Shown here: in pieces, positions 17,386 to 61,081 of the stretch
Layout: every line of letters starts with the position of its first letter
How positions within the stretch are numbered: the stretch's first letter is position 1
Virus record (IMG/VR): IMGVR_UViG_3300018475_000095
Strand: one strand, 5' to 3'
Length of the DNA: 64,000 nucleotides
Source: a virus
Taxonomy: Duplodnaviria; Heunggongvirae; Uroviricota; Caudoviricetes
The notes under the pieces: generated by a model
What the model saw: the letters and a program-made list of their open reading frames with translations, nothing else
What the model was told of the DNA's origin: nothing
Database searches by the model: none
Program-made: the position numbers and the translations under genes

Positions 17386-17595
17386 TTATTCTCCTTCTCT
17401 TATATAATACAGTTCCACACGCTCTTCATAATGCGCTTGAACACAATTATCTTCAATTATTATCTTTCTTTCTCCTGGGCAATTCCTATAAACCCATCTA
17501 ATCAAGTCTTCAAAACTAAAATCTTTCTCTGGTATAAACATTCTATCTTCTTTGCTTGTCTTGAATAGACTAATTACTTTGCATGTAACTACCAT
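17386..17595 (-). CDS. hypothetical protein
   Basis: 69-aa ORF. Confidence 0.45.
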   Translation of the reverse strand: MVVTCKVISLFKTSKEDRMFIPEKDFSFEDLIRWVYRNCPGERKIIIEDNCVQAHYEERVELYYIREGE

Positions 17596-17599: not shown

Positions 17600-17650
17600 C
17601 CTCCTATTTAATCATCCATATTATATATTATACAAAATAAAAAGTAAACT
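17600..17650 (-). promoter_or_regulatory. class A promoter (AGTTTACT-N17-TATAAT) for gene 17386..17595
   Basis: One of 8 conserved copies; see findings. Confidence 0.5.
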
Positions 17651-17666
17651 AAATTTCATTAAAAAA

Positions 17667-17688
17667 GAAGAATTATTTAAAATTCTTC
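17667..17688 (-). terminator. intrinsic terminator hairpin after gene 17677..18231
   Basis: GAAGAATT / AATTCTTC stem followed by a U-run on the minus strand. Confidence 0.45.
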
Positions 17689-18231
17689 TTCATCAAATAT
17701 TATTTCAAAATTTTCTTTTTTATATTTTTCTTTGTCAATTATATCATCTCTTTCATCTATATAATTACCAAAATTTAGATCTCTCATTATACATATTTTA
17801 CTTGAAAAAACAACTTTTGCAAGATGATCTAAAATATATTCTTGCGCATTTTTTTCTAATAATGGTGCCATATGACAATTTATAACATCACAAAAACTTA
17901 TTATAGATCTATCATTACAATAACCTTTTTTACTATTCCAAGGCAAATCATATCTAGGTTTTTCAAAAATGCAATTTGGAAAAGTTTTGATAATTAGATC
18001 ATATAGCTTCCAATATTTAGATACTACCGAGTAACTATATAAATATGATAATATATCATAAGGCTCATCTAGTATCATATCATAATCAAAATTTTCCAAT
18101 GGAATATTTACTTCATATTCTGAAGCTAATAATTCAAACTGGGTATCTGTTTTATCCGTTTTGCAAATTGCTAAGCTATGAATAGATGAACTATTTGTTT
18201 CGAATGTATTATTTCTAATTTTTTGATTCAT
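17677..18231 (-). CDS. FETNSSS-family paralog 1
   Basis: N-terminal MNQKIRNNTFETNSSSIHSLAI is shared with three other ORFs in the window. Confidence 0.6.
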   Translation of the reverse strand: MNQKIRNNTFETNSSSIHSLAICKTDKTDTQFELLASEYEVNIPLENFDYDMILDEPYDILSYLYSYSVVSKYWKLYDLIIKTFPNCIFEKPRYDLPWNSKKGYCNDRSIISFCDVINCHMAPLLEKNAQEYILDHLAKVVFSSKICIMRDLNFGNYIDERDDIIDKEKYKKENFEIIFDEEEF

Positions 18232-18276
18232 TTTATTAATTTCTCCTTGTTATTTTTAATAATATTAATTCCTTAG

Positions 18277-18402
18277 TTAATATTTTACTAAAATAATCGC
18301 AACTAAAAAAAATAATAATGTCGCTATAAGAATTAGTAACCCTTCTATCATAATTAATTCCTTTTTAAAAATTTTATATCTTTTTATAAACCTTTCAATC
18401 AT
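18277..18402 (-). CDS. small hydrophobic peptide (41 aa)
   Basis: ATGA overlap with the upstream stop; single TM helix; below track cutoff. Confidence 0.3.
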   Translation of the reverse strand: MIERFIKRYKIFKKELIMIEGLLILIATLLFFLVAIILVKY

Positions 18403-18611
18403 TTATCCAATATTTCTTCTACTTTATGATATGTATGGATAGAACCGAGTATCCAACCAGCTGAAAAAGCAGAATTGTACGAAGTATCTTCTAATTTTAA
18501 TTCTTCTGATTTTATCTCAGTTTTAATGCTTTCTAAAATAGTTTTATCATCTCTTTTTGAAAGTTGTTTATCAAACATTATCTTCATTAGCAATTCTTGG
18601 TCTTTATTCAT
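18399..18611 (-). CDS. hypothetical protein
   Basis: 70-aa ORF. Confidence 0.45.
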   Translation of the reverse strand: MNKDQELLMKIMFDKQLSKRDDKTILESIKTEIKSEELKLEDTSYNSAFSAGWILGSIHTYHKVEEILDK

Positions 18612-19272
18612 TCACAGAACCCTCTTTTGTGGTATCAATATTTACATATATAGGCGTATTATAAAGATCCCAATAATTAGCATAATCTTTCCAAGCTTTA
18701 TTCAAAATATCTTCTTTATGTTTCTCTTTTAATTTAGATTCTTTTATTATTTCTTTGAAATGAGTATAAGCAATAAAATAGTTATTTTTTGCAAAATCAT
18801 CAAAACCTAATTTGTAAGCAGACATTAATAACTTTAAATTTTTTAATGTTTCTTTTCGTGCATTAATTTCTGTGTCAGTTACATTAAATGGGTCTAAGAC
18901 TTCTAACTTACCTATTTTAAATCTATCATCTTTACCGCTAATAAATTTATAATTTAAAAATTTATCTTTAATAACAAAATCTATTTCTTTATTTATTTCT
19001 TGAGCTTCTTTTGCAAGTCTTTTAAATTCATCTAATTGAGAAGTGACTGCATAACTACAATCTTGGAAAGACCAATCATTATTGCTTTTCACATAAATTT
19101 GCCCATCTTTTATATCTAAAGTATTAGGTGGTGTTAAACCTTCTTTAATTCCTCTTGCAATACTTTCTTTTAAAGAATTATTTGATTCTAATTGTTTATC
19201 CATACTGATAATTATATCAATTAATTCTTCTCTTGTACATTCTGCTAATTTCTTCATTTCCAAATCTGTCAT
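18604..19272 (-). CDS. hypothetical protein
   Basis: 222-aa ORF. Confidence 0.55.
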   Translation of the reverse strand: MTDLEMKKLAECTREELIDIIISMDKQLESNNSLKESIARGIKEGLTPPNTLDIKDGQIYVKSNNDWSFQDCSYAVTSQLDEFKRLAKEAQEINKEIDFVIKDKFLNYKFISGKDDRFKIGKLEVLDPFNVTDTEINARKETLKNLKLLMSAYKLGFDDFAKNNYFIAYTHFKEIIKESKLKEKHKEDILNKAWKDYANYWDLYNTPIYVNIDTTKEGSVNE

Positions 19273-20252
19273 TATTTTATCTCCTTACTATGATTAAATT
19301 GGTCAGCTTCATTTAACAATTTTAAATTATTAAATTTTATATCCCCAAATACTTGTCTCCACTTCCTTTCAGATTTTTCAGTTTTAATATTATACATATG
19401 CATATGATAATTTATGTAAAATACTATATCTAATGTAGTATCATATTTAGGATAATCTTCTCCTAATTGTTCTATCATATACCAAGACATATAATTACAT
19501 AATACTTTATAAGCACCAACATTGGCATGATTATAGTAATGTGCATTAGGGTCATTTTCTTTATATGTCTGCGTATCAAGTTTGCCTATATCATGTAATA
19601 ATCCTGCTTCATATAAAACATTATCTATATCATATAATTGATTAGCAACCGATTCTAAATGTTCATGTAATAATTGAGTATGATGTTTATTATGTTGGTC
19701 AAATCCAAATGCAGATTTCATCATATTATTAAAATTTTCTACAGACTCATTATGCCCTATAATATTATACAGTAATATGTTGTCCCATCCTTCTTCATAA
19801 AAAGGTACTTCAAAAGATTCTAAATATCTTCTAACCACTTCTAATGGAACTTGATGAGAATTTATATCTTCATTTCTTTTTTTAACTCTTTCTATACATA
19901 CTTCATAAGGCGTGTTTACTATGTAACAAATCTTTTTACAAGGTTCTTTTATATTTAAAAATATTTGTTTTCTAGATTTAATTGTAATATTAGTTGCATC
20001 TAGGATAACATTTAATCCTTGTTTCAAAGCTATATTTGCTTGATTATATAAGCGTCTAAAAATAAATTCATTGTTCTCATCTGGAAATTCTTTTCTTAAT
20101 TTATCACTAGATAATACAATCATGTTATATTTCAAACTCAATTCTTCTGCAATAGTTGATTTACCGGAACCTTGCAAACCACACATCACAACCAGTTTAG
20201 GTAACCTATCTTCTGCTATGTCTAATCCTATTATTTTTATATCTTTATTCAT
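19272..20252 (-). CDS. polynucleotide kinase (P-loop) fused to an HD-domain phosphohydrolase
   Basis: Walker A GLQGSGKST at the N-terminus; HD motif HEHLESV...LLHDIGK in the C-terminal half. Confidence 0.75.
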   Translation of the reverse strand: MNKDIKIIGLDIAEDRLPKLVVMCGLQGSGKSTIAEELSLKYNMIVLSSDKLRKEFPDENNEFIFRRLYNQANIALKQGLNVILDATNITIKSRKQIFLNIKEPCKKICYIVNTPYEVCIERVKKRNEDINSHQVPLEVVRRYLESFEVPFYEEGWDNILLYNIIGHNESVENFNNMMKSAFGFDQHNKHHTQLLHEHLESVANQLYDIDNVLYEAGLLHDIGKLDTQTYKENDPNAHYYNHANVGAYKVLCNYMSWYMIEQLGEDYPKYDTTLDIVFYINYHMHMYNIKTEKSERKWRQVFGDIKFNNLKLLNEADQFNHSKEIK

Positions 20253-20733
20253 GCTGATTGCCTCTCTTTAAGAAAGTTTCATTTTGTATAGTATAATTAT
20301 CTAATTCGGCTTCAAATTTAGCTATTTTCAATAATACTCTATTTATTTTCCTCCTTGCTTTATGGAGTTTTGTTAAAGAGGTATCTAACATAACTCTTAA
20401 TTTTTCAATTTCTTTACCTCTCTCAGCAATTTCTTGGCTTGATTTTGTATATTCTCTTTCCAAATTTATATATAATTTATATAACTCGTCAGATAATGTA
20501 AACTTACTAAATGAAGATTTCAATACTAGTTTTGCTTCTAGGTCGGTTACCTTGTCTTGCAATTTTTCGTTCTCATCTCTAAAATCTTGAGCAAGTTTCA
20601 ACCACATATTATCCAAACTAATATGAGTTTTATGGTCTTTATATAATTCATTATAACAGTTGTTACATAAGCCCATTTCCCAATGGATATCTCCTGTTAA
20701 AATTTCATTTCCGCATTTAACACATTTACTCAC
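20245..20733 (-). CDS. zinc-finger / coiled-coil protein
   Basis: CVKCGNE...CNNC at the N-terminus, followed by a coiled coil. Confidence 0.5.
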   Translation of the reverse strand: MSKCVKCGNEILTGDIHWEMGLCNNCYNELYKDHKTHISLDNMWLKLAQDFRDENEKLQDKVTDLEAKLVLKSSFSKFTLSDELYKLYINLEREYTKSSQEIAERGKEIEKLRVMLDTSLTKLHKARRKINRVLLKIAKFEAELDNYTIQNETFLKRGNQHE

Positions 20734-21196
20734 TTTTCATCATCTCCTTTTTGAGTTGTTCTACTTGGTTGTCGATTATTTCTTCAATATCGTCTAAAAA
20801 TAAGTTACAATAATTCTTTCGCCAGCTATTTAATATCAACGATTTTAAATTTTTAATTCGCTCTACTGCGAATGAGATTTTATCTTGGTTGCTTTCTACA
20901 AATTTTGCAAACTTTTGATGTAGCCAATTAAACTCTTTTTCTTTCTCTGCAAGATGTTGTTTGAGTTCGTAATTCTCATTGGTTTGCTCAATAAATTGTT
21001 TTTCATAGATAGCAATTCTTCTTTTAATTTGCTCATCTTTAGTATTAGTAAATTGCACGCTTTTAAATTTTTTAAAAAATTTGGCGGTGTCTCTTGCAAG
21101 GTCGTCAACCCGTATCCCATCGCACAAAGGCCAGTTGGCTCTATCCCTATAACCTTGATAAAAATCCTCTAACTGTTTTTCGAATTCTTTATCCAT
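20726..21196 (-). CDS. hypothetical coiled-coil protein
   Basis: 156-aa ORF. Confidence 0.5.
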   Translation of the reverse strand: MDKEFEKQLEDFYQGYRDRANWPLCDGIRVDDLARDTAKFFKKFKSVQFTNTKDEQIKRRIAIYEKQFIEQTNENYELKQHLAEKEKEFNWLHQKFAKFVESNQDKISFAVERIKNLKSLILNSWRKNYCNLFLDDIEEIIDNQVEQLKKEMMKSE

Positions 21197-21240
21197 TTTT
21201 ATAATCTCCTTATTAATTATTTATATTATACAATAATTAC

Positions 21241-23172
21241 TTATAAAAGTAAATTAATTTCATGAGCTTTTATCTGAATTTTTCTTTTTAACTCTTTTAA
21301 TTTTGATTTAGATAATACTATACTTATATGACACCCAAAATCTTCAAATGGATCTTTTATCTCATTCATTGGATCAGTAAATTCTAAAATACTATTTCCA
21401 GTATAAGGTTTCCATGAATATAATGTACATGCACTAGATCTAGAATAAAAATGTTTTCTCAGTACCTGAGGTATTTCTTCATTTGTTATATTAAAAAATT
21501 TTTCTAAATCGCTATGGCTTCTTAATATTAATTCTATTTCACAGTACTTTCTATCATTGTCATTAGCAAACCAAATATAATTTCTCGTACCATATAAACT
21601 ATAGTAAATATTACCATAGTCAGTTTCAGTATAACCATCATATCTAGCAAAAGATTGTTTATGCTCATTTTCAAAAGTTTTTAAACTATAAGTATTTAAA
21701 TCGTCATTATCTCTAAATGCTTCCCAAAACATTTTTCTATTATCTTGATTATTGTTAGAATAACTATTCTTATAGTTATCTTTAAACCCATCTCTATCAG
21801 GTGTTTCTATCATTATTTTAACTATGGATTTAATATTTTTAGAAATATTATTTTGGTGCCAGTCTTCTAATTTTTTACGCCCTTCATAGTTATCTTGCTC
21901 TTTTAAACAAGCTTCTATATGATCCTTTTGTTGTTTTCTGATATTCCACCAGATATATTTTTCAGCTGTTTCCTTATCTCCAATAAAACTTTTTAATATA
22001 GGTAATTCTGTTTTTAATGGGTATTGATCAATTAAATAATCAAATAATGAATTTGAATATGATTTACCTTCATAGATATAAGTATCTGCTTTGATATTAT
22101 TCGGAAGAATAGGCAACTGTAGCTCATTAGAAGATACTAAAGCTTTAGAATCATTGAGTGGTAATAATTTTACTTCAGACGAGAAGTATTTCCTATTAAA
22201 GTTTTCTTCTATTGAATTGCAGAAATATTTGTTGTAAATTAAAGTCATTATTAAAGTAGAATATATAACACCTTCATCATCAAATAGATCAACTATATTA
22301 TAGCCACTTTCTTTTGCGTTATCATTAAAAGGTAATAATACTTGATTCACATGCTCATTTGATTGCTTTATCTTATCTAATTTATAATAAGGTAACCAAT
22401 CATAGTCTATCTTATCTCTCATAGCTCTGCCAGGGTTTCTAGACTTAAAAGCACCTTCAGGACTATCATAAGTTACCCTATCTGATACTACCCATACGAC
22501 ACCATTATTCTTAAAACCAAAAGCAAAGAAAGAATCTAAGTTATTATCATAGTATTCATCTTCAATCTTTTCGTTTGTTCTATCTATCAAAGCCATACAT
22601 ATAAAATTATCTTCACTTGCATTTTTCATTTTATCTACAAATAATTTTAAATGTTGAAATCTATATAATCTAGGGAGTATTGTTACATTTTTATTTATTT
22701 TAATTTCACCTTCACTAAATTTCTCATGCTTAAAAGAATATTTATTATTAAACTTTTCAATAGCTTTAGTTATGATATTTTCTATCTTTTTAATAGATTC
22801 AATATCTTCTTCTGTATAATTTTTACCTAACACTGAAGCATGTTTAATGATTAAATCTATGAATTTATGGTACACTTCTCCGGCTTTACCTGAATTCAAT
22901 AAATATTCAACATGAACAAATTTTTTCTTTTCTTCATACCAATTACCATCAAGTAATTCTTCAATAGTATAGTAATGTTCTTTAATAAAAGATTTGTAAG
23001 CTTCTCTCATAGTTAATACACTTAATAGTCCAGTATTATCTATATCTAAATAATTTTTTGCTTTATGGCAAAGAGCATCACTTTCAACACCAAACCTAAT
23101 AGAATTATCTGTAGGATCTTTTCCAGTAGCCTTTAAATATGCTTCAAATATTTCATTTAATTCATTTATCAT
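21241..23172 (-). CDS. large hypothetical protein
   Basis: 643-aa ORF with no recognised motif. Confidence 0.6.
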   Translation of the reverse strand: MINELNEIFEAYLKATGKDPTDNSIRFGVESDALCHKAKNYLDIDNTGLLSVLTMREAYKSFIKEHYYTIEELLDGNWYEEKKKFVHVEYLLNSGKAGEVYHKFIDLIIKHASVLGKNYTEEDIESIKKIENIITKAIEKFNNKYSFKHEKFSEGEIKINKNVTILPRLYRFQHLKLFVDKMKNASEDNFICMALIDRTNEKIEDEYYDNNLDSFFAFGFKNNGVVWVVSDRVTYDSPEGAFKSRNPGRAMRDKIDYDWLPYYKLDKIKQSNEHVNQVLLPFNDNAKESGYNIVDLFDDEGVIYSTLIMTLIYNKYFCNSIEENFNRKYFSSEVKLLPLNDSKALVSSNELQLPILPNNIKADTYIYEGKSYSNSLFDYLIDQYPLKTELPILKSFIGDKETAEKYIWWNIRKQQKDHIEACLKEQDNYEGRKKLEDWHQNNISKNIKSIVKIMIETPDRDGFKDNYKNSYSNNNQDNRKMFWEAFRDNDDLNTYSLKTFENEHKQSFARYDGYTETDYGNIYYSLYGTRNYIWFANDNDRKYCEIELILRSHSDLEKFFNITNEEIPQVLRKHFYSRSSACTLYSWKPYTGNSILEFTDPMNEIKDPFEDFGCHISIVLSKSKLKELKRKIQIKAHEINLLL

Positions 23173-23177
23173 ATTTA

Positions 23178-23555
23178 CTACTCCTTTAATTTAATGTCCA
23201 ATTTTTCTTTTAACTTTTTAAGTAGATTATCCATATTTGTTTCAGTAATCGAATACTCTTCTAATTCATCTTTATTCTCAATTACGATATCATTTATGAT
23301 ATTATCTATCTCTTCTGTGAATATTGCAGGTCGTTTTATTTCCTTTAAAGCAAATATTTTATAATTCAATTTTAAATCATTTAATTTATTAAATATCTCT
23401 TCATCTGAATAAGAGAATTTATAACCGGTAATTAATTCTTTATCATAAACACTAGATCCAAATTTATTCTCTAGAATGATACCATATATAGCATCTTTAA
23501 CTTCTGCTACTGTGTTGATCTCATTTCCTTTTACTTTCCAAATTTTATTTAACAT
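23178..23555 (-). CDS. hypothetical protein
   Basis: 125-aa ORF. Confidence 0.5.
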   Translation of the reverse strand: MLNKIWKVKGNEINTVAEVKDAIYGIILENKFGSSVYDKELITGYKFSYSDEEIFNKLNDLKLNYKIFALKEIKRPAIFTEEIDNIINDIVIENKDELEEYSITETNMDNLLKKLKEKLDIKLKE

Positions 23556-23556
23556 A

Positions 23557-23985
23557 TTAACTCCTTTTATCTATAAAATATAATTTATCATATTGTGAAT
23601 ATTTGCTATAATCTTCTTTAATAGCTATAAAATATTTACCAGTAGGTCTTTTTGCGGTTTTCTTATATGTACCCCATATACTTTCTTCTATTTCACCTGT
23701 CTCATACTCTTCATATTCAATATTTATTTGAGCCCTTTCAGAAGTAGGTTCAGCATCTTCATAATGAAACACACCGCCAACATCCTTAGAATGCCAAGTA
23801 CTATTATAAAATCTCCTTTGTCTTATTGGTTCAACATCACATACTTTAATTTGGTATTGTTGAGTTTTCTTAACATCAACAAAATACTCTGTTCTGTTAA
23901 TAACTTCAGCTTTCCAAACTTTACCATTTTTATCAATTCTAGTAAATACATCTCCGACTTTAATATCTGGTGCATATTCAAACAT
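23557..23985 (-). CDS. hypothetical protein
   Basis: 142-aa ORF. Confidence 0.5.
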   Translation of the reverse strand: MFEYAPDIKVGDVFTRIDKNGKVWKAEVINRTEYFVDVKKTQQYQIKVCDVEPIRQRRFYNSTWHSKDVGGVFHYEDAEPTSERAQINIEYEEYETGEIEESIWGTYKKTAKRPTGKYFIAIKEDYSKYSQYDKLYFIDKRS

Positions 23986-23999
23986 ATTATATCTCCTAC

Positions 24000-24034
24000 T
24001 TAATTATATTTATATTATATAATATTATAATAAA
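24000..24034 (-). promoter_or_regulatory. sigma70-like promoter of cassette class A (TTTACT-N17-TATAAT) for gene 23557..23985
   Basis: Minus strand reads AGTTTACT then 17 nt then TATAAT, then AGGAGAT and ATG. Confidence 0.5.
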
Positions 24035-24063
24035 AAAGTAAACTAATTTTCATAGTTTACTTT
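24035..24063 (-). terminator. intrinsic terminator hairpin (AAAGTAAACTA / TAGTTTACTTT) plus U-tract, overlapping the -35 of the next promoter
   Basis: 11-bp stem with a 7-nt loop, followed on the minus strand by TTTTTTATTAT. Confidence 0.55.
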
Positions 24064-24070
24064 AAAATTT

Positions 24071-25240
24071 TTAATCTTCTTTTTCTAATTTATAACCTAA
24101 TAAATTCATTTTCTTATCTTTAGATAATTCTTTCCATTCTTGCTTTATAAAATATTCTATTGGGTCTATATCTAAATATTTAAATAGAAACCCTGATAAG
24201 TCTTTATGTTCAGTTAAAATATAATTAGCTAGTTCTTTTCGTTTTTCTTTTTCATTTTCATAGAGGAAAGTATTACTTTTAAATAACATATCATCAATAG
24301 CATCATATATTTTATTTTGCATTTCTTTATATTTAGTTTCTATTTCATTAAATAAATCAGTATATTCTGGGAATAGTCCTAAAAATTCTGATTGCTCATT
24401 CTTTTCTATAATTGAAAGAATTTTTGCTCTTGAATTAACTCCATTATTTTTTAAATAATGTGCAGCTACGTATGCAGGTGATTTAATCTTAATTCTTTTC
24501 CAATATTTATCTACTACAACAAATCCTTCTTCATCATAGCCCATATATTCTACTCTATTCAAGCATTCTTTTAAATTTTGAAAAGGAAATTGTTTTGGAG
24601 TTTTAATAAATTTACTCAACTCAAGAGAATTTGGATCTAACTCTTCAAATGCGAATTTGCATCTTACGCCAATCAAGTATAAAGCATCTTTTCTATATGG
24701 AACAACTACTCTAGATTCTGGAGTTACTAATTCAAATGTATAGCAGTATAATCTATTCAAGCATTCAAACATAGAAGAATTGTTTGGAAAAGTATAATTT
24801 GAGAGAGCTCTGTCAAATAAATCTCTAAAAGATATTCCAAAGTCTCCAACAGGAGCATTACTTGCATCTAATTCACTTGAAGTAGACACCCTCCATTTAT
24901 GTAAGTAATCATCATACCACACAAGCATCTTAGATCCATCTACTTTTTCTAATACTTTTGCACTATCCCAGTCTATCTTATCAGCAAAACTTTCTTGGAC
25001 ATTAAAAAATTTATAGAAAGATAAAGCTGCTGGCTCTAAAATATTTTTGTCTATAATAAGACCTCTACATTCTCTGCATATATCTTCATTAAAATCTGAG
25101 TTTATTTGATTATATTTTAATAATACATAATTTTCATCTTCGTTTATGAATAAATTATAAGGAGCAGCTTGTAGCAACTCTCTCCAATTTTCATGACTCT
25201 TCATAAATTGAATAGTTTTAAGCATTTTCTTCCTCCTCAT
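24071..25240 (-). CDS. RNA ligase, Rnl1-like nucleotidyltransferase family
   Basis: EKVDGS is the KxDG adenylation motif in an Rnl1-like context; 389 aa. Confidence 0.65.
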   Translation of the reverse strand: MRRKKMLKTIQFMKSHENWRELLQAAPYNLFINEDENYVLLKYNQINSDFNEDICRECRGLIIDKNILEPAALSFYKFFNVQESFADKIDWDSAKVLEKVDGSKMLVWYDDYLHKWRVSTSSELDASNAPVGDFGISFRDLFDRALSNYTFPNNSSMFECLNRLYCYTFELVTPESRVVVPYRKDALYLIGVRCKFAFEELDPNSLELSKFIKTPKQFPFQNLKECLNRVEYMGYDEEGFVVVDKYWKRIKIKSPAYVAAHYLKNNGVNSRAKILSIIEKNEQSEFLGLFPEYTDLFNEIETKYKEMQNKIYDAIDDMLFKSNTFLYENEKEKRKELANYILTEHKDLSGFLFKYLDIDPIEYFIKQEWKELSKDKKMNLLGYKLEKED

Positions 25241-25308
25241 ATAATTCTACTTTTTCAAGAAAATAATTTTTCTTGAAAGAACCATTCTTCTCTACTTTAT
25301 CTAAATAT

Positions 25309-25668
25309 TTATCCATTATAAACTCCTTTATCTATAACTTCTTGCTTGTGTTTAAGATTCATATATCTATCATACATAAATTTTACCCAATAATTAAATA
25401 TATTTTCATTATCTTTTTTGGTTATATAAGAACAAGGTTTAAGCAAACCTAGTTCGACATCAGGACCGTATCCAGTTCTAGATCTATAAAATTTATCCTT
25501 TTCACCTTCACTTATATAAACATCTTTTGTAGTTAATCTAACTTTTTTACTCTTGGAACTATTCTTAGATAACCAGATAACTCCTTTTTCCCAGTTATAA
25601 TGAAGCATAAAAGCAAAACCTGGTTGGGTATCTATTAATATTGATTCTTTAGTTAATTGCATCTTCAT
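25309..25668 (-). CDS. hypothetical protein
   Basis: 119-aa ORF. Confidence 0.5.
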   Translation of the reverse strand: MKMQLTKESILIDTQPGFAFMLHYNWEKGVIWLSKNSSKSKKVRLTTKDVYISEGEKDKFYRSRTGYGPDVELGLLKPCSYITKKDNENIFNYWVKFMYDRYMNLKHKQEVIDKGVYNG

Positions 25669-25966
25669 CTCCTTTTTTAATTAATCCTTTTTCATAACTC
25701 CAATCATATCTTGAAATTATATCTTTTGCTTCTATTAAATCTTTTTCATCTAGTTGAAAATCAATAGCCTGTGGATTAAAATGAGACTTAATTATAGCTT
25801 CTTCTAATGTTGGATATATGTCAATACTACATCCTTCAAAACCTTTATGTCCTATCATATTGTAACCATCATAATCTTCAATATCAGCAGATGTATATGT
25901 TATCACACATTTTTCATGTTTATCGTAATAATCCCATTCTTGACATACTACATATGTTCTATCCAT
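25649..25966 (-). CDS. hypothetical protein
   Basis: 105-aa ORF. Confidence 0.45.
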   Translation of the reverse strand: MDRTYVVCQEWDYYDKHEKCVITYTSADIEDYDGYNMIGHKGFEGCSIDIYPTLEEAIIKSHFNPQAIDFQLDEKDLIEAKDIISRYDWSYEKGLIKKGDEDAIN

Positions 25967-25970
25967 ATTA

Positions 25971-26278
25971 TTAAACCTCCTCGAGTTTACTTAAATCAAA
26001 TCTATATAAAGGGTAAGCACAGAACCCACTAAATCCATACTCACCTGTCGGATAAGCTATTTTATTCTCTTGTAAAAAATCCTCAACCCATGGGATATTG
26101 TTAGTATCTATATAAGCACATGCTTCATCACCTATACAATCACTAGCATCTATATTTACTGTTAATACTGCTATCATTTCCTTGTTATCTGATAAAAATA
26201 CCGCTAATGAACCATTATTAGCATAAGAATCTTTATGCAATGTATAATGTTTATTTTTATGTATGCTGCATCTAACAT
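25971..26278 (-). CDS. hypothetical protein; true start probably ATG 26278..26276 joined by a -1 shift in an A5 run
   Basis: AAAGGAG then 8 nt then ATG opens a frame that is -1 relative to track ORF 25971..26240, which starts on TTG with no RBS. The two frames overlap across ACATAAAAATAAAC. Confidence 0.45.
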
Positions 26279-26424
26279 AGTTTTTTCTCCTTTATTTATA
26301 TATACATTAATATTATATATCAATAAAAAGAAAAAGTAAACTAATTTTAACTAGTTTACTTTAAATTTTATTATTCATTACTTTCACAATCTTCTTGCAG
26401 TATATAATCTGGGTCAAATATTAT

Positions 26425-27018
26425 TTAATAAAATTTCTTTGTGAGTAATTCTACATTTTTAAGTTCGTAGCTTGGAATCATTAATAAATCATCTAATCCT
26501 TTACCTTCATCATACAGATGCTCTAAATCTCTTTTTTCTGGAATAATTACTTGTTTATCTTCACCGATATATTTCTTTATTGCATTCACAAATGCTTTGA
26601 TTAAAGGTACTTCATAAAATCTTTCATCCATAAGTTTTCTTCTAAGTTCATAATCACATCTTTTTGGATTTGTTTTTATGTGATGACAACCTTTACTATC
26701 ATAATAATCTTCTAAATATTTAGGCTCGTCATAGTTAGTATACTCTGATTCTTTTACTATTTCATCACATTGATCATCTACTTCTGATGCAATAAATCTT
26801 AACAAGGTTTGTGCTTTATCAAAAGTACTTCTTGCGGTAAATTGATATGAGCTTGTCCACCCCATTGTCCTTCTAGAAACTTTACTTGTTATCTCTAAAT
26901 CTTGTCCTGGAATTATTTCTCTTGCATTTTTAGTTTCTTTACTTTGTTTAATAATGGCTAAGCTATGATAACTTGAACTATTAGTCTCAAATGTTTCTAA
27001 TCTTATAGTTTGTTTCAT
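26425..27018 (-). CDS. FETNSSS-family paralog 2
   Basis: N-terminal MKQTIRLETFETNSSSYHSLAII. Confidence 0.6.
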   Translation of the reverse strand: MKQTIRLETFETNSSSYHSLAIIKQSKETKNAREIIPGQDLEITSKVSRRTMGWTSSYQFTARSTFDKAQTLLRFIASEVDDQCDEIVKESEYTNYDEPKYLEDYYDSKGCHHIKTNPKRCDYELRRKLMDERFYEVPLIKAFVNAIKKYIGEDKQVIIPEKRDLEHLYDEGKGLDDLLMIPSYELKNVELLTKKFY

Positions 27019-27567
27019 TTATTCATTCTCCATTTCTTTTATAATACTTGATATTATTTTAAGTTTTCTCTGTCTACTTAATTCAGAATCTAGTGTATCG
27101 TATACTGTTATTAATTTATCTGCTTTTAAATCATTCTTTGCTTTTTCTTTTAACTCATATTCTTCTTTTGCTTTCAAAAATTGAGCAAGTCCTGCATCAG
27201 TCATAGTATACAAATCTTCTAATTTCCGTATATTGGAATCCTCATCCAAATTACAGCCAGCATAAACTATCAATACAAAACTTAATAAAACAAATATTGT
27301 TTCTATAATTGCTGCTATAACATTAGCAAGTAAAGTGGTGTATGACTCTGCACTTAAACAAACGCCATTTAAAACTGATAAAGCTACAGAGATTATAAGA
27401 AATATAACACTCCATATTTGGGTGCACCTATGATTCTTTTCTTCCTCTATCAACATTCGAGTATATTCATAGTCAATATCCATATGCATAGAACTTTTAG
27501 AGGTATCTAAATGGTCTATTACATACTCTACTCTACCAAAAACATAATTTCTTGTAAATTTATGCAT
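27019..27567 (-). CDS. membrane protein
   Basis: Two TM helices. Confidence 0.5.
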   Translation of the reverse strand: MHKFTRNYVFGRVEYVIDHLDTSKSSMHMDIDYEYTRMLIEEEKNHRCTQIWSVIFLIISVALSVLNGVCLSAESYTTLLANVIAAIIETIFVLLSFVLIVYAGCNLDEDSNIRKLEDLYTMTDAGLAQFLKAKEEYELKEKAKNDLKADKLITVYDTLDSELSRQRKLKIISSIIKEMENE

Positions 27568-27596
27568 ATATAAATTCTCCTATATAATTATACAGT

Positions 27597-27935
27597 TTAA
27601 TCCAATAAACCCAATTGATTTAATTCATATAAACAAAAGAAACTATACTTTGAAACTAAATTTTTCTTTATAAGTTTTAAATATGTTTTCTTTGAATTAG
27701 ACTTATGGAGTTCATTACAAATATATTCAATATTCTCTTTAGAACTTGCATCTATGTATAAATCATGTAAATGCAAGTAATGAATATCTAATGTTACATA
27801 TTTCCCATCTCTTGGGTAAGTTTTCGTAAACTTATCACATTTAATAGATATAACACCATTACTAAAAATAAAGTCCCAACCTGTTAAAAAACGGTCACTT
27901 ATCCACTCCCAGTCTTTCTTTGAAATATATTCCAT
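27597..27935 (-). CDS. hypothetical protein
   Basis: 112-aa ORF. Confidence 0.5.
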   Translation of the reverse strand: MEYISKKDWEWISDRFLTGWDFIFSNGVISIKCDKFTKTYPRDGKYVTLDIHYLHLHDLYIDASSKENIEYICNELHKSNSKKTYLKLIKKNLVSKYSFFCLYELNQLGLLD

Positions 27936-27946
27936 AATAACCCCCT

Positions 27947-29272
27947 TTAATACATTGATATATCAGTCTTATCTTCTCTTATCCACTTGAATACAGGAAA
28001 CCTTAATCCAAAAGTACCTTGTTGATTGGCTGATATTTCAAAATATTGTATTTCAATTATTTTATTTAAAATTTTATCTGGGTTATCCCAATAATACTCT
28101 CTATCCTCATCAGTCAAACCCGAACCTACATCATTTTGATAAGTAAACCCATCAGGACCAATAAATTCAATCTTTAATGCTCCAAGTTTACCTTTATTTT
28201 TTCCTGTACCTTCTTCCATACCAACAACTTTAACATCGCAGGTTTGCATTTTCTTAACTTTAAGTAAGCCTTTGCTTCTTTTACATTCATAAGGGGCATC
28301 TGCAATATTAATCATGACACCCTCACCTCCAGCAGCTGTTATAATATCTAATTGTTCAGTAATAACCTGTTTATCATCACCATAATATAAGATAGGAACG
28401 TCAACTATATGAGGTAATTTCATAAAAGTAAATTGTTTTAATAATTGCTCTTTTCTTAAAGATGCAGGCGCATTACAATAACCATTTTGAAAATCTGTAA
28501 TTGGAATCATGTCAAAAACATTGAATATAAGATTAGTTTTTTCTTTATCTGCACTAGTAACTTTTACAGTTGCCCTATATAAATCTTTACTCTCTAAATT
28601 ATCTTTGTTATCTAACAGTAGTTCACCATCATATACATAACCCATAGGTAACTGTTTTGCTTCTTCTTCAAGTTCTATCAATTGCTCTATTAACTGACCT
28701 TGTCTGGAAAAGAATTTTGCACCTGAAAAACCATCGTTAATTAAAACACATCTGACACCATCTAACTTTGGAGTCAAAATAAATTGAATCCCTTCTGGAA
28801 CAAGTTTATCTGGATTGTCAAAATATTTTTGTGCTAACATCACGTCGAAGCAAGGTATAAAATTATCACCCCAAATTTTATTTATAGTTGTTGATTGAAT
28901 ACCCAATTTAATATCTTTAGAAACTATTTTTAATATAAGTTCAGAATAATCTTTATTAGACATAGCACATTTTAAGACTTCAATTAAAGTTGAATCTGAA
29001 CCAGTGTTATTCAACTTAACATAATTAAGTAAGTCAAATATATCATAAGTTTCTGGTATATCTTCTTTACTTATAAATGAAGATTTAATTCTATCTATTT
29101 TCTTTTTTGAGATACCTGTGACAATATAGGGGTTGAATATAAAATGAACTATTTGTTTTACATATTCATTTTCTTTATATTTATCTAACACAGCTTCTTT
29201 ATATAATCTAGAATTACTAGAGTTAATTTCATTTACAAATTCTTCAAATACTTTTAAAACCATTTTATTCAA
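27947..29272 (-). CDS. ATP-dependent DNA ligase
   Basis: TPKLDGVRC (motif I, KxDGxR), EGVMIN (motif IV) and LLKVKK (motif V). Confidence 0.85.
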   Translation of the reverse strand: MNKMVLKVFEEFVNEINSSNSRLYKEAVLDKYKENEYVKQIVHFIFNPYIVTGISKKKIDRIKSSFISKEDIPETYDIFDLLNYVKLNNTGSDSTLIEVLKCAMSNKDYSELILKIVSKDIKLGIQSTTINKIWGDNFIPCFDVMLAQKYFDNPDKLVPEGIQFILTPKLDGVRCVLINDGFSGAKFFSRQGQLIEQLIELEEEAKQLPMGYVYDGELLLDNKDNLESKDLYRATVKVTSADKEKTNLIFNVFDMIPITDFQNGYCNAPASLRKEQLLKQFTFMKLPHIVDVPILYYGDDKQVITEQLDIITAAGGEGVMINIADAPYECKRSKGLLKVKKMQTCDVKVVGMEEGTGKNKGKLGALKIEFIGPDGFTYQNDVGSGLTDEDREYYWDNPDKILNKIIEIQYFEISANQQGTFGLRFPVFKWIREDKTDISMY

Positions 29273-29999
29273 TCTCCTTTAACATATCTTGAACTTTATC
29301 TTTACCATATTTTTCTTCTAATTTACTTATTGCTTCTTCTTTAATATGAGTAATAAGTAGTTTTGCCTGTTCTTCTGTTTTTGCAGTTCTATCAGATGTT
29401 AAAGTGTCCCAATTCTCATCTCTAATGCACCAATTACATTGGAATTTATTAAAAGGATAATTAGATGTATCTACCCAATTATCAACATAAGGAGTAGCTT
29501 TTTCATTCTTATCTGAACAAGTGAGAGTCATACTTAATTGTCTTACTCTAACTTTTTTATACTCATATTTAGGTAGAGATGGTCTATAATTTTTACAAAT
29601 AGGACAATCAACAGATTCTATTCTATTACCTAAAGTGACTGCAACTTTTCCATTTTCACAATAAGGACAAGTTAGATAAGTATACCCATTTGAATATATC
29701 TTATAAACAGTATCACCAACTTTAATATCAGTGTGGAGTAATTTCTCTAACCATTTATTATGTTGTTCTTGGGCTGCTTTACTTATTTCATTATCAAAAT
29801 CTTCAAGTTTCTTTTCATACTCTTCTTTAAGTCCATTCGCAACCATCATCATAGTTTTAACTTCATCTTTATTTACATCATATTTCTTAGCATTATTTAC
29901 AATCTCATTCTTTAACATTGTTTGTAATTTTGCTGAATACTCATTAAATAAATCTTCTATCTCTGATGGTTCTCTATAATAATCTTCATAATCATACAT
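29265..29999 (-). CDS. zinc-ribbon containing hypothetical protein
   Basis: CPYCENGK...CPICKN and CNWC. Confidence 0.5.
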   Translation of the reverse strand: MYDYEDYYREPSEIEDLFNEYSAKLQTMLKNEIVNNAKKYDVNKDEVKTMMMVANGLKEEYEKKLEDFDNEISKAAQEQHNKWLEKLLHTDIKVGDTVYKIYSNGYTYLTCPYCENGKVAVTLGNRIESVDCPICKNYRPSLPKYEYKKVRVRQLSMTLTCSDKNEKATPYVDNWVDTSNYPFNKFQCNWCIRDENWDTLTSDRTAKTEEQAKLLITHIKEEAISKLEEKYGKDKVQDMLKEIE

Positions 30000-30000
30000 G

Positions 30001-30678
30001 TTACTTAATCTCCTCTACATAACACCAGCTTTGTGGGGCTTTATTTATTTGTTTATAAATACAATTTGCACCATCAAAGTCGATCCCACAAGCCCAACAA
30101 CCTTCACTTGTGTCATAATAGTTATATTTACAATCACTATTTTTATTGCAAGGATAATCATCACAATCTAAGTCTTTTTTAAATTCATTTAACGCTTTTG
30201 GTTGTTTATAAATTTTCAAATCATCTATACACCATGCGTATAAAGTTTTACCTTTACCATAATTATCTAGTTGCTCTTCAGTTAAACAAGATGCCTCTAA
30301 TTGACTTGGCATTATATCATACATTCTTTTTGGTAGCCAATCATTATAATCTCTATCAATAGTTTCAATATCATGCAATGTAAATTCTGCAACTACTTTA
30401 CCATTTAATTTTGTACCGCAACTCAAATTACCATTTACTTGCTTTCCAGTACCTTTATATAACATGAATCTTTCATCTTTAATATGATAAAAAGCATACT
30501 TAGTAGATTGAGTACAATAAATATAAACTTTACAAGGCAGATTGCATTTTGGGATTGATTTTCTGATTTCAAGAATTTTCTTACCGGTAAATATTTTCTC
30601 AACCCATTCAGGTTTAATACTAATTAAAATAGATCTCATTTTCTCTCCTCCTATCCAAAATAAACCCAAAATTTCCAA
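30001..30678 (-). CDS. ASCH/PUA-like domain protein with Cys-rich C-terminus
   Basis: SIKPEWVEKIFTGKKILEIRK resembles the ASCH N-terminal strand. Confidence 0.5.
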   Translation of the reverse strand: MEILGLFWIGGEKMRSILISIKPEWVEKIFTGKKILEIRKSIPKCNLPCKVYIYCTQSTKYAFYHIKDERFMLYKGTGKQVNGNLSCGTKLNGKVVAEFTLHDIETIDRDYNDWLPKRMYDIMPSQLEASCLTEEQLDNYGKGKTLYAWCIDDLKIYKQPKALNEFKKDLDCDDYPCNKNSDCKYNYYDTSEGCWACGIDFDGANCIYKQINKAPQSWCYVEEIK

Positions 30679-31115
30679 ACTTGAATATTTAGTTTTTGTT
30701 CTTTTAATTCTTTTATTTTGTTATTGTTATCTATAAACACTTCTATTTGTGCTTTAACAAGCTCATTGCTATTAATTTCTGGGTATACTACCAATAGCGT
30801 TTGTATGTCTTCACCTTGTAAACTATCAAATATGTTTAATTCGTGCTCAAGATATTTCTCTACTGTAGCTGTGATAGTTGTTTCGATATTTGTATTCTCC
30901 TCAGTGTACATTTGTATTTTATCATCAATAATACTACTTTCTGATATAGTTATCCCACCTACTATAAGTGTTACAAAAGCACCAAGCGATAAAAGAATGC
31001 CTAAAATAATACCTATATAACTATATGGATTTTCATCTCCATAATCTGTTAGTTTATATACTAACAAACCTGATATAAGTATACCTACAGAAATTAAAAA
31101 TAAAACTATTAACAT
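30651..31115 (-). CDS. membrane protein
   Basis: Two TM helices. Confidence 0.5.
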   Translation of the reverse strand: MLIVLFLISVGILISGLLVYKLTDYGDENPYSYIGIILGILLSLGAFVTLIVGGITISESSIIDDKIQMYTEENTNIETTITATVEKYLEHELNIFDSLQGEDIQTLLVVYPEINSNELVKAQIEVFIDNNNKIKELKEQKLNIQVWKFWVYFG

Positions 31116-31129
31116 AATATCATATCTCC

Positions 31130-32299
31130 TTAATTATTTATTTCAATTATATATCTAATAGTACATTGATTACTATTATATACAATATATTCATCGTTTC
31201 TTAAATCAGCACCACCTCTAGCAAATACTGAATTACATTTTTGTGATTTAACTTGATCTTCAGTAATCCTGCCCATCCAAGATTTATAACTTTCATTATC
31301 TAAAATTCGCCATTCTTGACCTGTAGCAAATTCAAATATAGTTAGATAAGCTTTATTACTTGAGCCAGATGCCCAATAACTACCTCTTAATGATGTATAA
31401 CCAATGCTTTTTCTTGCTTTATTAGCTGCATATATACCATTACCAAACATCGAACCTGTTAAGACAACACCCTTAGGTCTAATTTTTAACCCTGTTTGCA
31501 TAATGCTTAGATAATTCTCATTTCTACTTCCATGATATAAAAGTCTTGTTTTAAGATTATCTGGATTAAATACTTTCTCAGTTTCATGATTTGTAACTCT
31601 AAATATTTTTTGATTATTAACTCTAAAATCAGTATTGGCAGCTATAAATTCTCTTTCTTCTTGCGTTGCTAATCTACAATCAAACCCAAGTGTTTCTAAT
31701 GTTATATCTTCAATTTTATTAGATTGGGTATTCAAATTAACTTGTGATTTAAGTGTGTTGAGTTTATTTTGTTCTTCTTGTAATAATTCTATAAATTCTT
31801 GTTTAGTGTAATTAGGTTTTAAGAAAAAAGCTCTTGTATCATACATTTTTCTTGGTATAGTTGTATACACCTTTTGAAGATAGTTATTTATAATATTATA
31901 AGGTAATTTTGTTAAATCCAAGTCATTCAACTCGTCTAATATTTCTTGGACTTTATTTATTTGAATATCTGAAATTGAGTCCAGTGATACTTCATAATTT
32001 GATTTGATAGACTGTTTTGCACAACTCATAAGAAATGAAATTAAATCTTTAACATCTTTATCATCTATCTTTAAAGAAGCTTTTTTAATGTCTTGAGATA
32101 AAGATTCACTTATATCAACATACCCTTTCTTTATTTTTTCATTGTATTTTTTATCCCATTGAGACATAGAGTAAGAAGTTTTTACACTTGTAGCTCCAAC
32201 TCTTCCATATTCAACTTCGAAAGTACCGTCACCGAGATCTGTCATATTGTAAAACTTATTATTATTGTTAGGTGTAACACATATTAACTTTTTATTCAT
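31130..32299 (-). CDS. PARP-like ADP-ribosyltransferase (N-terminal WGR domain plus PARP catalytic domain)
   Basis: LLYHGSRNEN...GSMFGNGIYAANKARKS matches the PARP H-G-S/Y-[FY]/E signature region. N-terminal FEVEYGRVG resembles the WGR motif. Confidence 0.8.
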   Translation of the reverse strand: MNKKLICVTPNNNNKFYNMTDLGDGTFEVEYGRVGATSVKTSYSMSQWDKKYNEKIKKGYVDISESLSQDIKKASLKIDDKDVKDLISFLMSCAKQSIKSNYEVSLDSISDIQINKVQEILDELNDLDLTKLPYNIINNYLQKVYTTIPRKMYDTRAFFLKPNYTKQEFIELLQEEQNKLNTLKSQVNLNTQSNKIEDITLETLGFDCRLATQEEREFIAANTDFRVNNQKIFRVTNHETEKVFNPDNLKTRLLYHGSRNENYLSIMQTGLKIRPKGVVLTGSMFGNGIYAANKARKSIGYTSLRGSYWASGSSNKAYLTIFEFATGQEWRILDNESYKSWMGRITEDQVKSQKCNSVFARGGADLRNDEYIVYNSNQCTIRYIIEINN

Positions 32300-32454
32300 T
32301 ATACAATCTCCCTGTAATATAAAATATTATTTTCAAATGTGATATTTGCTAAACCTTTGTTTATCTTATCTTTATATAAAATATACAGAAAAGTAGAACA
32401 TATATTAAGTTCTAATTCATTATTTATATTATAAGATTCTTTTACTACTACCAT
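32299..32454 (-). CDS. small ORF (51 aa) translationally coupled to the PARP-like gene
   Basis: AAAGGAG plus 5 nt then ATG at 32454..32452; its TAA overlaps the PARP ATG (TAATG). Confidence 0.4.
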   Translation of the reverse strand: MVVVKESYNINNELELNICSTFLYILYKDKINKGLANITFENNILYYREIV

Positions 32455-32539
32455 AGCTACTCCTTTTAATTATAAATATTATATAAGATTATGATTAAAA
32501 AGTAAACTAATTTTAACAGAAAAATAAAAAAGTTGATAA

Positions 32540-33412
32540 TTAATTATCAACTTCTAAACTTATATATTTTAATATTGGTTTAAAATCATCTAGTGAATGA
32601 GTTTTAAGAATAAGTTTGATTGGTATATTTCTGCCATAAGTTAAATGCTTAAAACATTCTAATACTGATGCAAATGTTATCATAGCTGATTGATTTATAT
32701 CAACATCCTCTTCATCTTCTATTTCAATACATTTTATAAATTCATTATTATAATTATCTATCTCTTCCATAAATTCATTATAAACATCATCATTTACAAA
32801 TCTATTAATGTAATATAGACTAAATGTTTTAATATCATCAATCCAAAAATGCTTACCACTAGATATATAATCTATATTATCTAAATCAATAATACCTTTT
32901 TTAAATAATTTTTTAAACTCTTGGTATTCATCACCATCTACAATAACAGTGTACCTAGGGTCAAGGATAAATTCTCTCAAAGATATATTATTCTTTTCAA
33001 TATAATCAAATACATCTTCGCCTGTGTCATTTATACCAGCATATCCATAAGATTTTTCTGGTTTCTTTTTCCAAGGGTATTCTTCTTCACAATATAATTT
33101 TATTTTCTCCCTAGAACATCCTGTAAGCTCATAAACAAGATCTTCAACTTCTTTTAACCTTTCTTTTTCTTTTTTGAAACCTACATAATGTGCTACATAA
33201 TATCTTAGTTTATCTTTTGGACTAGATAAAACTTCAAAAGGTGTTCTTCCAAAAGAATGAGTATCACAACATCCAAATAGTTCAAAATCATTGCCATAAT
33301 AGTGCAATGATTTATCACTAACTGAGTAAGGTTTAACTTTCTTAGATATAACTAAACTATGCATTGAACTGCTATTTGTTTCAAAGGTTGAATTTCTAAT
33401 AAGTTGTTTCAT
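32540..33412 (-). CDS. FETNSSS-family paralog 3
   Basis: N-terminal MKQLIRNSTFETNSSSMHSLVI. Confidence 0.6.
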   Translation of the reverse strand: MKQLIRNSTFETNSSSMHSLVISKKVKPYSVSDKSLHYYGNDFELFGCCDTHSFGRTPFEVLSSPKDKLRYYVAHYVGFKKEKERLKEVEDLVYELTGCSREKIKLYCEEEYPWKKKPEKSYGYAGINDTGEDVFDYIEKNNISLREFILDPRYTVIVDGDEYQEFKKLFKKGIIDLDNIDYISSGKHFWIDDIKTFSLYYINRFVNDDVYNEFMEEIDNYNNEFIKCIEIEDEEDVDINQSAMITFASVLECFKHLTYGRNIPIKLILKTHSLDDFKPILKYISLEVDN

Positions 33413-33414
33413 AT

Positions 33415-33624
33415 TTAATAATCTCCTAAATTATCTAGTAATAAACGTTCTGCTCGTTTCATTAATCCAAGAATTGCATATACTTCATCCATACTATCTA
33501 TACTTTCAATTTTGTTTATAGCTTCATATAGTAGATCTGTTATTTTATTATGGTTATCCAAAGTTAAACTATGAGTAGAACTTGAGTTTGTTTCAAAAGT
33601 CTTATTTCTAATAAACTGTTTCAT
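33415..33624 (-). CDS. FETNSSS-family paralog 4 (short, 69 aa)
   Basis: N-terminal MKQFIRNKTFETNSSSTHSLTL; lies in tandem with paralog 3. Confidence 0.5.
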   Translation of the reverse strand: MKQFIRNKTFETNSSSTHSLTLDNHNKITDLLYEAINKIESIDSMDEVYAILGLMKRAERLLLDNLGDY

Positions 33625-60162: not shown

Positions 60163-60523
60163 CTTGATTCCTCACTTCTATAACTTGAATATATTCTAAT
60201 AGACTACTGTACACCCTATTATCGTTATCACTGCAATTAAGAAACCTTGATTCAATACACTCAACTAATTCTTGATATGCTTTCTTATAATTTAATTTAT
60301 CTTCTACTATCACATCAATATCTTCACTTAATAGTAACCCTATTACTATATAATCACAAGGATAACCTGTTGTATGAGAAATACATTCTATGTGAGCTTC
60401 TTCTTTATTTTCATAAATATATTGATAGGTGTAAGTATCATCTCCTTTCTTATGATACTTTATTTTGCTATTAGGTTTAATATGTAACATATTCATAACT
60501 TCAATTAAATAATGACTATTCAT
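60155..60523 (-). CDS. hypothetical protein
   Basis: 122-aa ORF. Confidence 0.5.
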   Translation of the reverse strand: MNSHYLIEVMNMLHIKPNSKIKYHKKGDDTYTYQYIYENKEEAHIECISHTTGYPCDYIVIGLLLSEDIDVIVEDKLNYKKAYQELVECIESRFLNCSDNDNRVYSSLLEYIQVIEVRNQGE

Positions 60524-61078: not shown

Positions 61079-61081
61079 ACG

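Follow-up and report, generated by a model that had tools for sequence, protein, structure and literature searches.

Radical S-adenosylmethionine (SAM) enzymes that act on tagged protein clients are a known logic. In the anSME/AtsB systems, one radical SAM enzyme serves many sulfatases, which have the alkaline-phosphatase fold and carry the motif (C/S)xPxR, more broadly (C/S)-x-(P/A)-x-R. A SPASM or twitch cluster and an RRE (PqqD-like, peptide-binding) domain are common in peptide-modifying radical SAM enzymes, and glycyl radical enzymes hold a conserved Gly in an RVxG-type loop. Short N-terminal peptides borne by otherwise unrelated phage proteins are known as well, the capsid-targeting sequence of T4 internal proteins, which the prohead protease removes and whose bearers are packaged in the virion, being a loosely conserved example. 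Here we describe four genes in a 64,000-nucleotide stretch of a Caudoviricetes virus (IMG/VR virus record IMGVR_UViG_3300018475_000095), the whole of which is called the window, whose products share an N-terminal segment, hereafter the tail, and have otherwise largely different bodies. Genes with this tail and one radical SAM enzyme constitute a near-obligate module in phages of Firmicutes, Bacteroidota and cyanobacteria, a pattern that makes the tail a candidate recognition or modification site for the enzyme. The window is ~27% G+C, and all of its genes that were examined are on the minus strand; the genes at issue are as follows, with S0 and S2 denoting types of body.

17677..18231, minus strand: p184, 184 aa; S0 body type in a divergent form; the copy closest to the radical SAM gene
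26425..27018, minus strand: p197, 197 aa; own body type, S2, mostly helical in the model
32540..33412, minus strand: p290, 290 aa; S0 body of the 'DGDEY' type with a C-terminal alpha/beta extension; strongly conserved
33415..33624, minus strand: p69, 69 aa; minimal paralog, consisting of the tail and ~45 residues
16356..17384, minus strand: radical SAM enzyme, 342 aa; CNMGCKFC (C-x3-C-x2-C); phrog_16999, 'Fe-S oxidoreductase'
17386..17595, minus strand: 69-aa open reading frame (ORF) without the motif, between p184 and the radical SAM gene, its stop 2 nt before the start of the latter

The original prediction of four ORFs with a common N-terminal motif holds in full: all four lie at these coordinates on the minus strand, and a six-frame scan with a regular expression finds exactly four motif sites in the 64 kb window, each the start of one paralog. 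Aligned, the four products share M[KN]QxIRxxTFETNSSSxHSL, with 17 invariant columns over the first ~20 residues. The codons of the three serines differ from paralog to paralog (AGT TCA TCT / AGT TCA AGT / AGC AGT TCA / TCA AGT TCT), and this switching between AGY and TCN rules out conservation of the 5' ends at the DNA or RNA level; the tail is therefore conserved by selection on the protein. The motif-less 69-aa ORF beside p184, considered as a degenerate paralog of the S1 type described below, found no support in comparison and has no tblastn match in the other loci.

A search of 1.84 billion cluster representatives (50% identity) with a 35-column profile of the tail alone gives 6,648 matches at E<=1e-3, of which 96 reach E<=1e-10. 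The match begins at residue 1 in nearly all of the top 150, in proteins whose lengths run from 32 to 395 aa, and the consensus across the family is M-K-x-x-[IV]-R-x-x-x-F-E-T-N-S-S-S-x-H-[STA]-[LI]. Positions that the selecting regular expression did not force are likewise conserved in 252 non-redundant sequences (Arg at -5 in 100%, Ile or Val at -6 in 95%, Phe at -1 in 92%), and the motif Glu is residue 10 or 11 in 94% of them. The profile search that had been suggested for the N-terminus thus reveals a very large family without a name or a known domain, which is among the larger nameless protein families and mostly viral. Pfam and NCBIfam give no domain match for it, and a sequence search of the PDB with a profile of the p290 family found nothing. 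Its sole database entry is the unannotated phrog_28997 (PHROGs), built on gp130 of the Microcystis phage Ma-LMM01, which the window paralogs match over the tail only (E about 0.02-0.04), and the string 'ETNSSS' is in no paper of the searchable literature. Two proteins, P0163 (395 aa) and P0164 (288 aa), carry two tail motifs each, the second at ~residue 166, and are probably neighbouring paralogs joined by read-through or by a gene-calling error.

A common signal peptide or a domain of established function, either of which the original prediction had named as telling against it, was looked for and not found. Sec, Tat and lipoprotein signals have a hydrophobic core of ~10 or more residues after a basic N-region; residues 1-20 of the tail are polar (K, Q, R, N, T, E, T, N, S, S, S, H, S) and contain no hydrophobic run, and a signal of any of these kinds is rejected.

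The association with the radical SAM enzyme is seen in the window itself, where 300 nt separate p184 from the enzyme gene, the second gene downstream of it. Loci with p290 relatives in bacterial genome assemblies hold tail genes in tandem sets of 2-4, and by tblastn the enzyme lies beside them in 6 of 10 such loci. In Eubacterium plexicaudatum ASF492, three tail genes are followed immediately by a radical SAM gene whose product is 40% identical to that of the window ORF 16356-17384 over 294 residues (E 4e-68). Circularity was avoided by fetching viral contigs with the radical SAM profile alone, which gave 449 relatives in IMG/VR, of which 80 loci were kept. Tail-bearing ORFs are present in 78 of these 80, the enzyme lying at a contig end in the two negative loci, and all 171 tail ORFs are on the strand of the enzyme. 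Where the enzyme could be positioned (157 tail ORFs), 128 start <=2 kb upstream of it and 15 <=1 kb downstream, 143 in total. When all ORFs of 92 sources (91 loci and the window region) were clustered, the tail family and the radical SAM family were each found in 88, and the next most frequent family in only 18 loci. DNA methylases, a metallophosphoesterase, a Band-7 protein, a primase and a single-stranded DNA-binding protein are among the other neighbours, none of which is general.

Each locus holds one enzyme gene and 1-6 client genes, usually in the order S0, S1, radical SAM, where S0 is the commonest body type behind the tail and S1 a second widespread one. Of the 78 positive loci, 72 have S0, 63 have S1, usually directly upstream of the enzyme gene, and 57 have both. 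Among the 50,697 phage genomes of INPHARED, the enzyme and an S0 query match the identical 24 records, 15 Prevotella Lak megaphages and 9 Ma-LMM01-like Microcystis phages, which represent two lineages and not 24 independent events. The S0 query was of type b, and only with it was the family found there, INPHARED tblastn searches with p290 and with a short-form relative giving no match. Lak-B1 has the enzyme and then four tail-bearing genes. The minimal module is that of Ma-LMM01 (L092, NC_008562.1, 129804-131610), in which gp130 (the tail protein, 'hypothetical'), gp129 and gp128 (radical SAM, 'Fe-S oxidoreductase') are adjacent; it adjoins a primase and gp131, a class II aminoacyl-tRNA synthetase-like 'histidyl tRNA synthetase' paralog. 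The Ma-LMM01 transcriptome paper does not mention gp128-130, and the searchable literature holds no paper that ties this radical SAM enzyme to such a family.

The enzyme itself belongs to a family of ~300 aa proteins with a conserved N-terminal extension of ~35 residues (YxNGNYxVxIxxDGTKIRET), the C-x3-C-x2-C motif, a GG(D/N) element, LILGYKxxRRG and SFDNLAIEQL, and with no further or C-terminal Cys cluster. The window copy matches phrog_16999 at E 7e-35. NCBIfam gives weak matches of the core to viperin, AlbA, MoaA and NrdG (E 1e-5 to 1e-7, far under the cut-offs), Pfam a weak radical SAM core match only, and the PDB holds no close sequence relative.

What lies behind the tail was compared after the motif and six residues had been cut off in 252 family members and the remainder subjected to BLAST. 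One of the resulting clusters, S0, holds 151 sequences, including p290, p184, Ma-LMM01 gp130 and one Lak phage protein. A motif-less profile of the p184 family aligns to the S0 profile by hhalign with 97.6% probability (E 4.6e-12, 95 columns), a score that is partly a self-match since the S0 profile already holds p184-family sequences; the homology of the p184 and p290 bodies is independent of that self-match because it follows from the BLAST linkage and from comparing the p290 and p184 families over their full length as separate alignments, in which similarity reaches ~column 99. The same full-length comparison of the p197 family with the p290 and p184 families detects similarity in columns 1-37 only. 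By hhalign and BLAST on motif-less sequences, p197 (S2), S1 and the p69 type have no detectable similarity to S0 or to one another. The earlier statement that the four proteins diverge completely after the tail is accurate for p197 and p69, and fails for p184 and p290, which have the S0 body in common. S1 proteins, of which the window has no copy, are ~127 aa long (about 100-145; for example L093:10675-10977), with a highly charged middle and an invariant C-terminus, GxKVVAFGYYG(H/Y)(D/N). Conserved extreme C-termini recur across the family, S0 type-b proteins ending in Y-x-K-G-N and p197-type proteins in EECESNE.

Modelling of the N-terminus, also suggested beforehand, showed the tail unpacked in both proteins modelled with AlphaFold2. 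The p290 model is alpha/beta (mean predicted local distance difference test score (pLDDT) 90, predicted template modelling score 0.84), and that of p197 is mostly helical with one hairpin (pLDDT 83.5). The tail is the only long segment of low confidence in either, with pLDDT <50 at residues 1-13 of p290 and 1-18 of p197, and is not packed on the body, as would fit a flexible, accessible tail.

The tail is autonomous because it is invariant over dissimilar bodies and is kept in a conserved mini-protein of 69-73 aa. The original prediction had suggested that the N-terminus might be a module for a common partner or for localisation; the module stands as an autonomous unit on different bodies, and its likely partner is the phage-encoded radical SAM enzyme rather than a host protein. 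We infer a physical interaction between tail and enzyme, a modification, its chemistry and the biological role of the pair from the pattern described above. The tail is proposed as an enzyme interface because it is common to unlike bodies, fixed from Met1 and unpacked, and because its genes lie in a near-obligate radical SAM module. By analogy, a single enzyme gene with 1-6 client genes would be the pattern of a maturase and its substrates. In outline, the radical SAM enzyme would bind the invariant, exposed tail of every family member and modify an invariant Ser, Thr, Asn or His there by a radical reaction, so that one maturase could serve several client proteins with different bodies. An S0 client (p184, p290), with its metal-site-like motifs GYIDHxxE and TGNDN/VDGDEY, would then probably be an enzyme activated by modification of its tail. 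That the tail is a recognition or modification site for the radical SAM enzyme we put at roughly 45%.

Several observations weigh against this proposal. The enzyme has neither a SPASM/twitch cluster nor a recognisable RRE, offering only its conserved N-terminal extension of ~35 residues; the clients are folded proteins of 69-290 aa and not short peptides; and three of the four window paralogs lie 9-16 kb away from the enzyme gene. Low pLDDT is weak evidence for disorder, as an invariant tail offers AlphaFold no covariation signal. Finally, the polar motifs of S0 mean that the tail could belong to an active site of the ordinary kind, and that the radical SAM enzyme could serve the same pathway without acting on the protein.

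This last point opens the main alternative, in which the tail is a catalytic signature, the first strand and active-site loop of a divergent superfamily of metal-dependent hydrolases or transferases; the radical SAM enzyme would leave the protein unmodified and work alongside it in a pathway such as that of nucleotide, RNA or DNA modification, and p197, S1 and p69 would be degenerate or regulatory offshoots. N-terminal catalytic strand-loops are familiar from the DxDxT of HAD enzymes and the D-T-N of PIN domains, and enzymes that start directly with strand 1 likewise typically have a motif at a short, constant spacing from Met1. The S0 type has further conserved polar motifs (FGRxPF/EFGW, KxxY, GYIDHxxE, and TGNDN or VDGDEY; in p290, FGRxPF, KxxY, NDTGED and VDGDEY), which together with the R, E, T, N, S, S, S and H of the tail resemble a metal and phosphate site, and nucleic-acid enzymes abound in the neighbourhoods (RlaP, CCA-adding enzyme, RNA ligases, kinase-HD protein, DNA methylases, metallophosphoesterase). 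In p184, however, GYC(D/N)DR and RDLN stand where GYIDH and GNDN are usual, and in S1, S2/p197 and the p69 type the other motifs are absent, yet the tail is still invariant. A conserved protein of 69 aa is too small for such an active site, the tail is not packed into the p290 or p197 body, and the Pfam, NCBIfam and PDB sequence searches were empty. Taken together, these points make a catalytic signature an unlikely reading, if one still to be reckoned with. In the p184 orthologous group, Cys87 is invariant, and Cys105 and Cys114 are conserved at >=90%, at the place where other S0 proteins have GYIDH/GNDN; these cysteines suggest a switch in metal ligands or a different cofactor.

Particular folds were also compared with the tail proteins. 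Toprim (E...DxD), HAD, PIN (D-T-N), PHP and metallophosphoesterase were each rejected, there being no profile or fold match, and no alkaline-phosphatase fold, and hence no member of that superfamily, was seen among the clients. The cyclic-phosphate-processing receiver domain (cREC) of RNA-repair neighbourhoods (PMC7824862) was another candidate; its receiver-like fold with conserved catalytic Asp residues is not matched by the family's profile or fold.

Within the proposal that tail and enzyme interact, modification of the tail is favoured over mere docking because eight small or polar residues are invariant, three Ser, Thr, Asn and His among them. If the tail were a docking peptide only, the family members would be interchangeable adaptors or specificity subunits, delivering different host proteins or RNAs to the radical SAM enzyme, which would modify these targets and leave the tail as it is. 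Linkage and co-occurrence would be expected on either account, and the presence of several paralogs per enzyme, with variable and partly fast-evolving bodies behind a constant tail, suits adaptors well. The invariance of E, T, N, S, S, S, H and R across thousands of clusters nevertheless exceeds the usual need of docking and resembles chemistry, and no target is indicated, so that an adaptor role is rather improbable.

How the bodies evolve bears on whether the family is diversifying, as the original prediction had proposed. At E<=1e-3, p290 has 320 homologs, mostly full length, on metagenomic contigs of 100-235 kb; p197 has 27 and p184 has 15. Orthologs of p69 occur in two related phages, L001 (73 aa) and L094 (69 aa), and because of them p69 is a maintained gene and no remnant. 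As to expansion in related phages, which it had been suggested to look for, L001 carries six tail-bearing genes (and, at the cut end of its locus, the N-terminus of the radical SAM ortholog), and the paralogs recur as orthologous groups. By these comparisons, each paralog is an old gene and not the outcome of a recent local expansion. Ratios of nonsynonymous to synonymous substitution rates (dN/dS) were measured against the close relative L094, at a dS of about 0.75-0.95. For p290 the ratio is 0.08 over the whole gene, 0.07 in the body and 0.18 in the first 22 codons; for p69 the corresponding values are 0.48, 0.57 and 0.19, and for p197 they are 0.64, 0.75 (near saturation) and 0.11. The p290 body is under strong purifying selection; those of p69 and p197 change rapidly, and their tails stay constant. 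As a general rule, then, diversification does not hold: the groups are old and orthologous, p290 is constrained, and only the bodies of p69 and p197 are fast.

These rates also bear on the role that the original prediction had raised as a possibility for the family, that of diversifying anti-defence or host-takeover proteins with a common partner or localisation signal. In the form weighed here, the shared N-terminus of such effectors would bind a partner in the host, or would direct their localisation or packaging. A constant N-terminus on variable bodies recalls the T4 internal proteins, two of the bodies evolve quickly, and the genes lie among accessory and early-type genes, often at the end of a transcription unit. 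Such a role leaves unexplained why the genes should be linked near-obligately to a radical SAM gene in phages of Firmicutes, Bacteroidota and cyanobacteria, hosts so different that they are unlikely to offer one invariant partner, and it sits poorly with the dN/dS of 0.08 in p290 and with a tail that has no hydrophobic signal-peptide core. PADLOC, moreover, matches only 2 of 79 family members, weakly and to unrelated entries (E about 3e-4 and 9e-4). An effector family is accordingly the least probable of the explanations weighed here, and a distant one. The likeness to T4 extends to a short conserved segment at the exact N-terminus of otherwise unrelated proteins from several paralogous phage genes; the tail differs in being invariant across phages of three bacterial phyla and in being linked to a radical SAM enzyme, not to head genes.

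The p197 gene of the window has a further peculiarity. It ends at an in-frame TAA (26425-26427, minus strand) where all relatives have Glu (FY-E-IIFD...), and its relatives P0121 (93% identical) and the L094 ortholog read through the site. The sequence downstream of this stop is

26371..26424, minus strand: orphaned p197 3' end; 17 codons and a stop, encoding IIFDPDYILQEDCESNE, the nearly invariant C-terminus of the family

The p197 stop is either a recent nonsense mutation or a sequencing error.

Three of the four paralogs had been described as each followed by a terminator-promoter cassette. The cassette is real, but it is not specific to the paralogs: 4 of its 7 copies lie elsewhere, and it is a general intergenic element. 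Its form is AAWTTARTTTACTTTT-N-TATAAT, of which 0.4 copies are expected and 7 are found, all on the minus strand and between 17.6 and 40 kb (at 17640, 21245, 24034, 26332, 32498, 37650 and 39954); written out, the copies read AA(A/T)TTA(G/A)TTTACTTTT and then TATAAT(AT), and some are preceded by a hairpin. The copies next to tail genes are

17620..17655, minus strand: promoter-like element, AATTTAGTTTACTTTT ... TATAAT; between p184 and the small ORF with the radical SAM gene
26312..26347, minus strand: promoter-like element downstream of p197; a hairpin precedes the element
32478..32513, minus strand: promoter-like element downstream of p290

The seven-copy element is probably the phage's own early or middle promoter-terminator unit, and the copy after p184 likely serves as a promoter for the small ORF and the radical SAM gene. 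That 3 of 4 paralogs stand before one of seven elements has a hypergeometric probability of ~0.01, a rough estimate that holds if the stretch has ~40 genes, and tail genes show a mild tendency to end transcription units.

The remaining genes of this region form a set related to RNA repair and NAD:

19272-20252: AAA_33 kinase and HD protein
24071-25240: T4 Rnl1-like ligase
27947-29272: ATP-dependent DNA ligase
30001-30678: ASCH protein
31130-32299: PARP catalytic domain with WGR
33626-34264: small RNA ligase (PF09414)
about 35219-36490: CCA-adding enzyme
about 38410-39498: RlaP

The same genes occur in the same order in the related phages L001 and L094; such neighbours are not general across tail-gene loci. 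A 643-aa ORF at 21241-23172 (minus strand) matches nothing in Pfam or NCBIfam. Over the final 4 kb of the window (60001-64000), G+C content rises from ~27% to ~36% and GC skew is weaker.

Set against the systems with which this account began, the module is closest in outline to anSME/AtsB. Both consist of one radical SAM enzyme and several paralogous, folded clients that carry a short invariant Ser-containing motif near the N-terminus, and the tail-family clients, like sulfatases, are probably metal-dependent enzymes. Unlike the sulfatase system, the motif here is FETNSSSxH and not (C/S)xPxR, the clients do not have the alkaline-phosphatase fold, the enzyme is without SPASM auxiliary clusters, p69, S1 and p197 are without an enzyme-like body, and modification is a proposal only. 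Systems of ribosomally synthesized and post-translationally modified peptides (RiPPs) are alike in their tight operons of one maturase and 1-6 paralogs, in a radical SAM gene adjacent to and co-directional with the putative substrate genes, in a conserved N-terminal segment with a variable remainder, and in a number of paralogs that varies among genomes. They are unlike in that the clients here are 69-290 aa proteins with confidently folded bodies (pLDDT 84-90) rather than short precursor peptides, that neither RRE nor SPASM domain is detected in the enzyme, and that no protease or exporter is linked to the loci; moreover, the invariant part is rich in modifiable residues and may be the site itself rather than a leader. 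A glycyl radical enzyme with its activase is rejected, as FETNSSSxH contains no Gly and the only frequent one, three residues before the Glu, is present in 36% and at a variable position; related contigs carry a genuine NrdD/NrdG pair as genes of their own. Apart from the adjacency of the radical SAM gene, no defining feature of RiPP, sulfatase or glycyl-radical systems among those tested was found.

The tail motif and its association with the radical SAM enzyme are new to the searchable databases and papers. The only database families that hold an S0-type client and the enzyme, phrog_28997 (the gp130 family) and phrog_16999 (gp128), are unannotated or generically named. That the module amounts to a new class of proteins matured by a radical SAM enzyme, outside the RiPP, sulfatase and glycyl-radical kinds, in which a dedicated enzyme installs a new post-translational modification or a radical-derived cofactor in the FETNSSSxH tail and so activates otherwise unrelated clients in large phages of at least three bacterial phyla, is a possibility that we regard as doubtful at present, though a substantial one. 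In either case, four hypothetical proteins are joined to a specific radical SAM enzyme in a two-component module, for which there is now a biochemical hypothesis that can be tested. Lak megaphages of the human and animal gut carry the module, and its presence in the cultured cyanophage Ma-LMM01 provides a tractable experimental system. If the enzyme does modify the tail, the clients would constitute a new substrate class, and possibly a new chemistry, for radical SAM enzymology, and a recurrent multi-paralog gene cluster of large phages would be explained.

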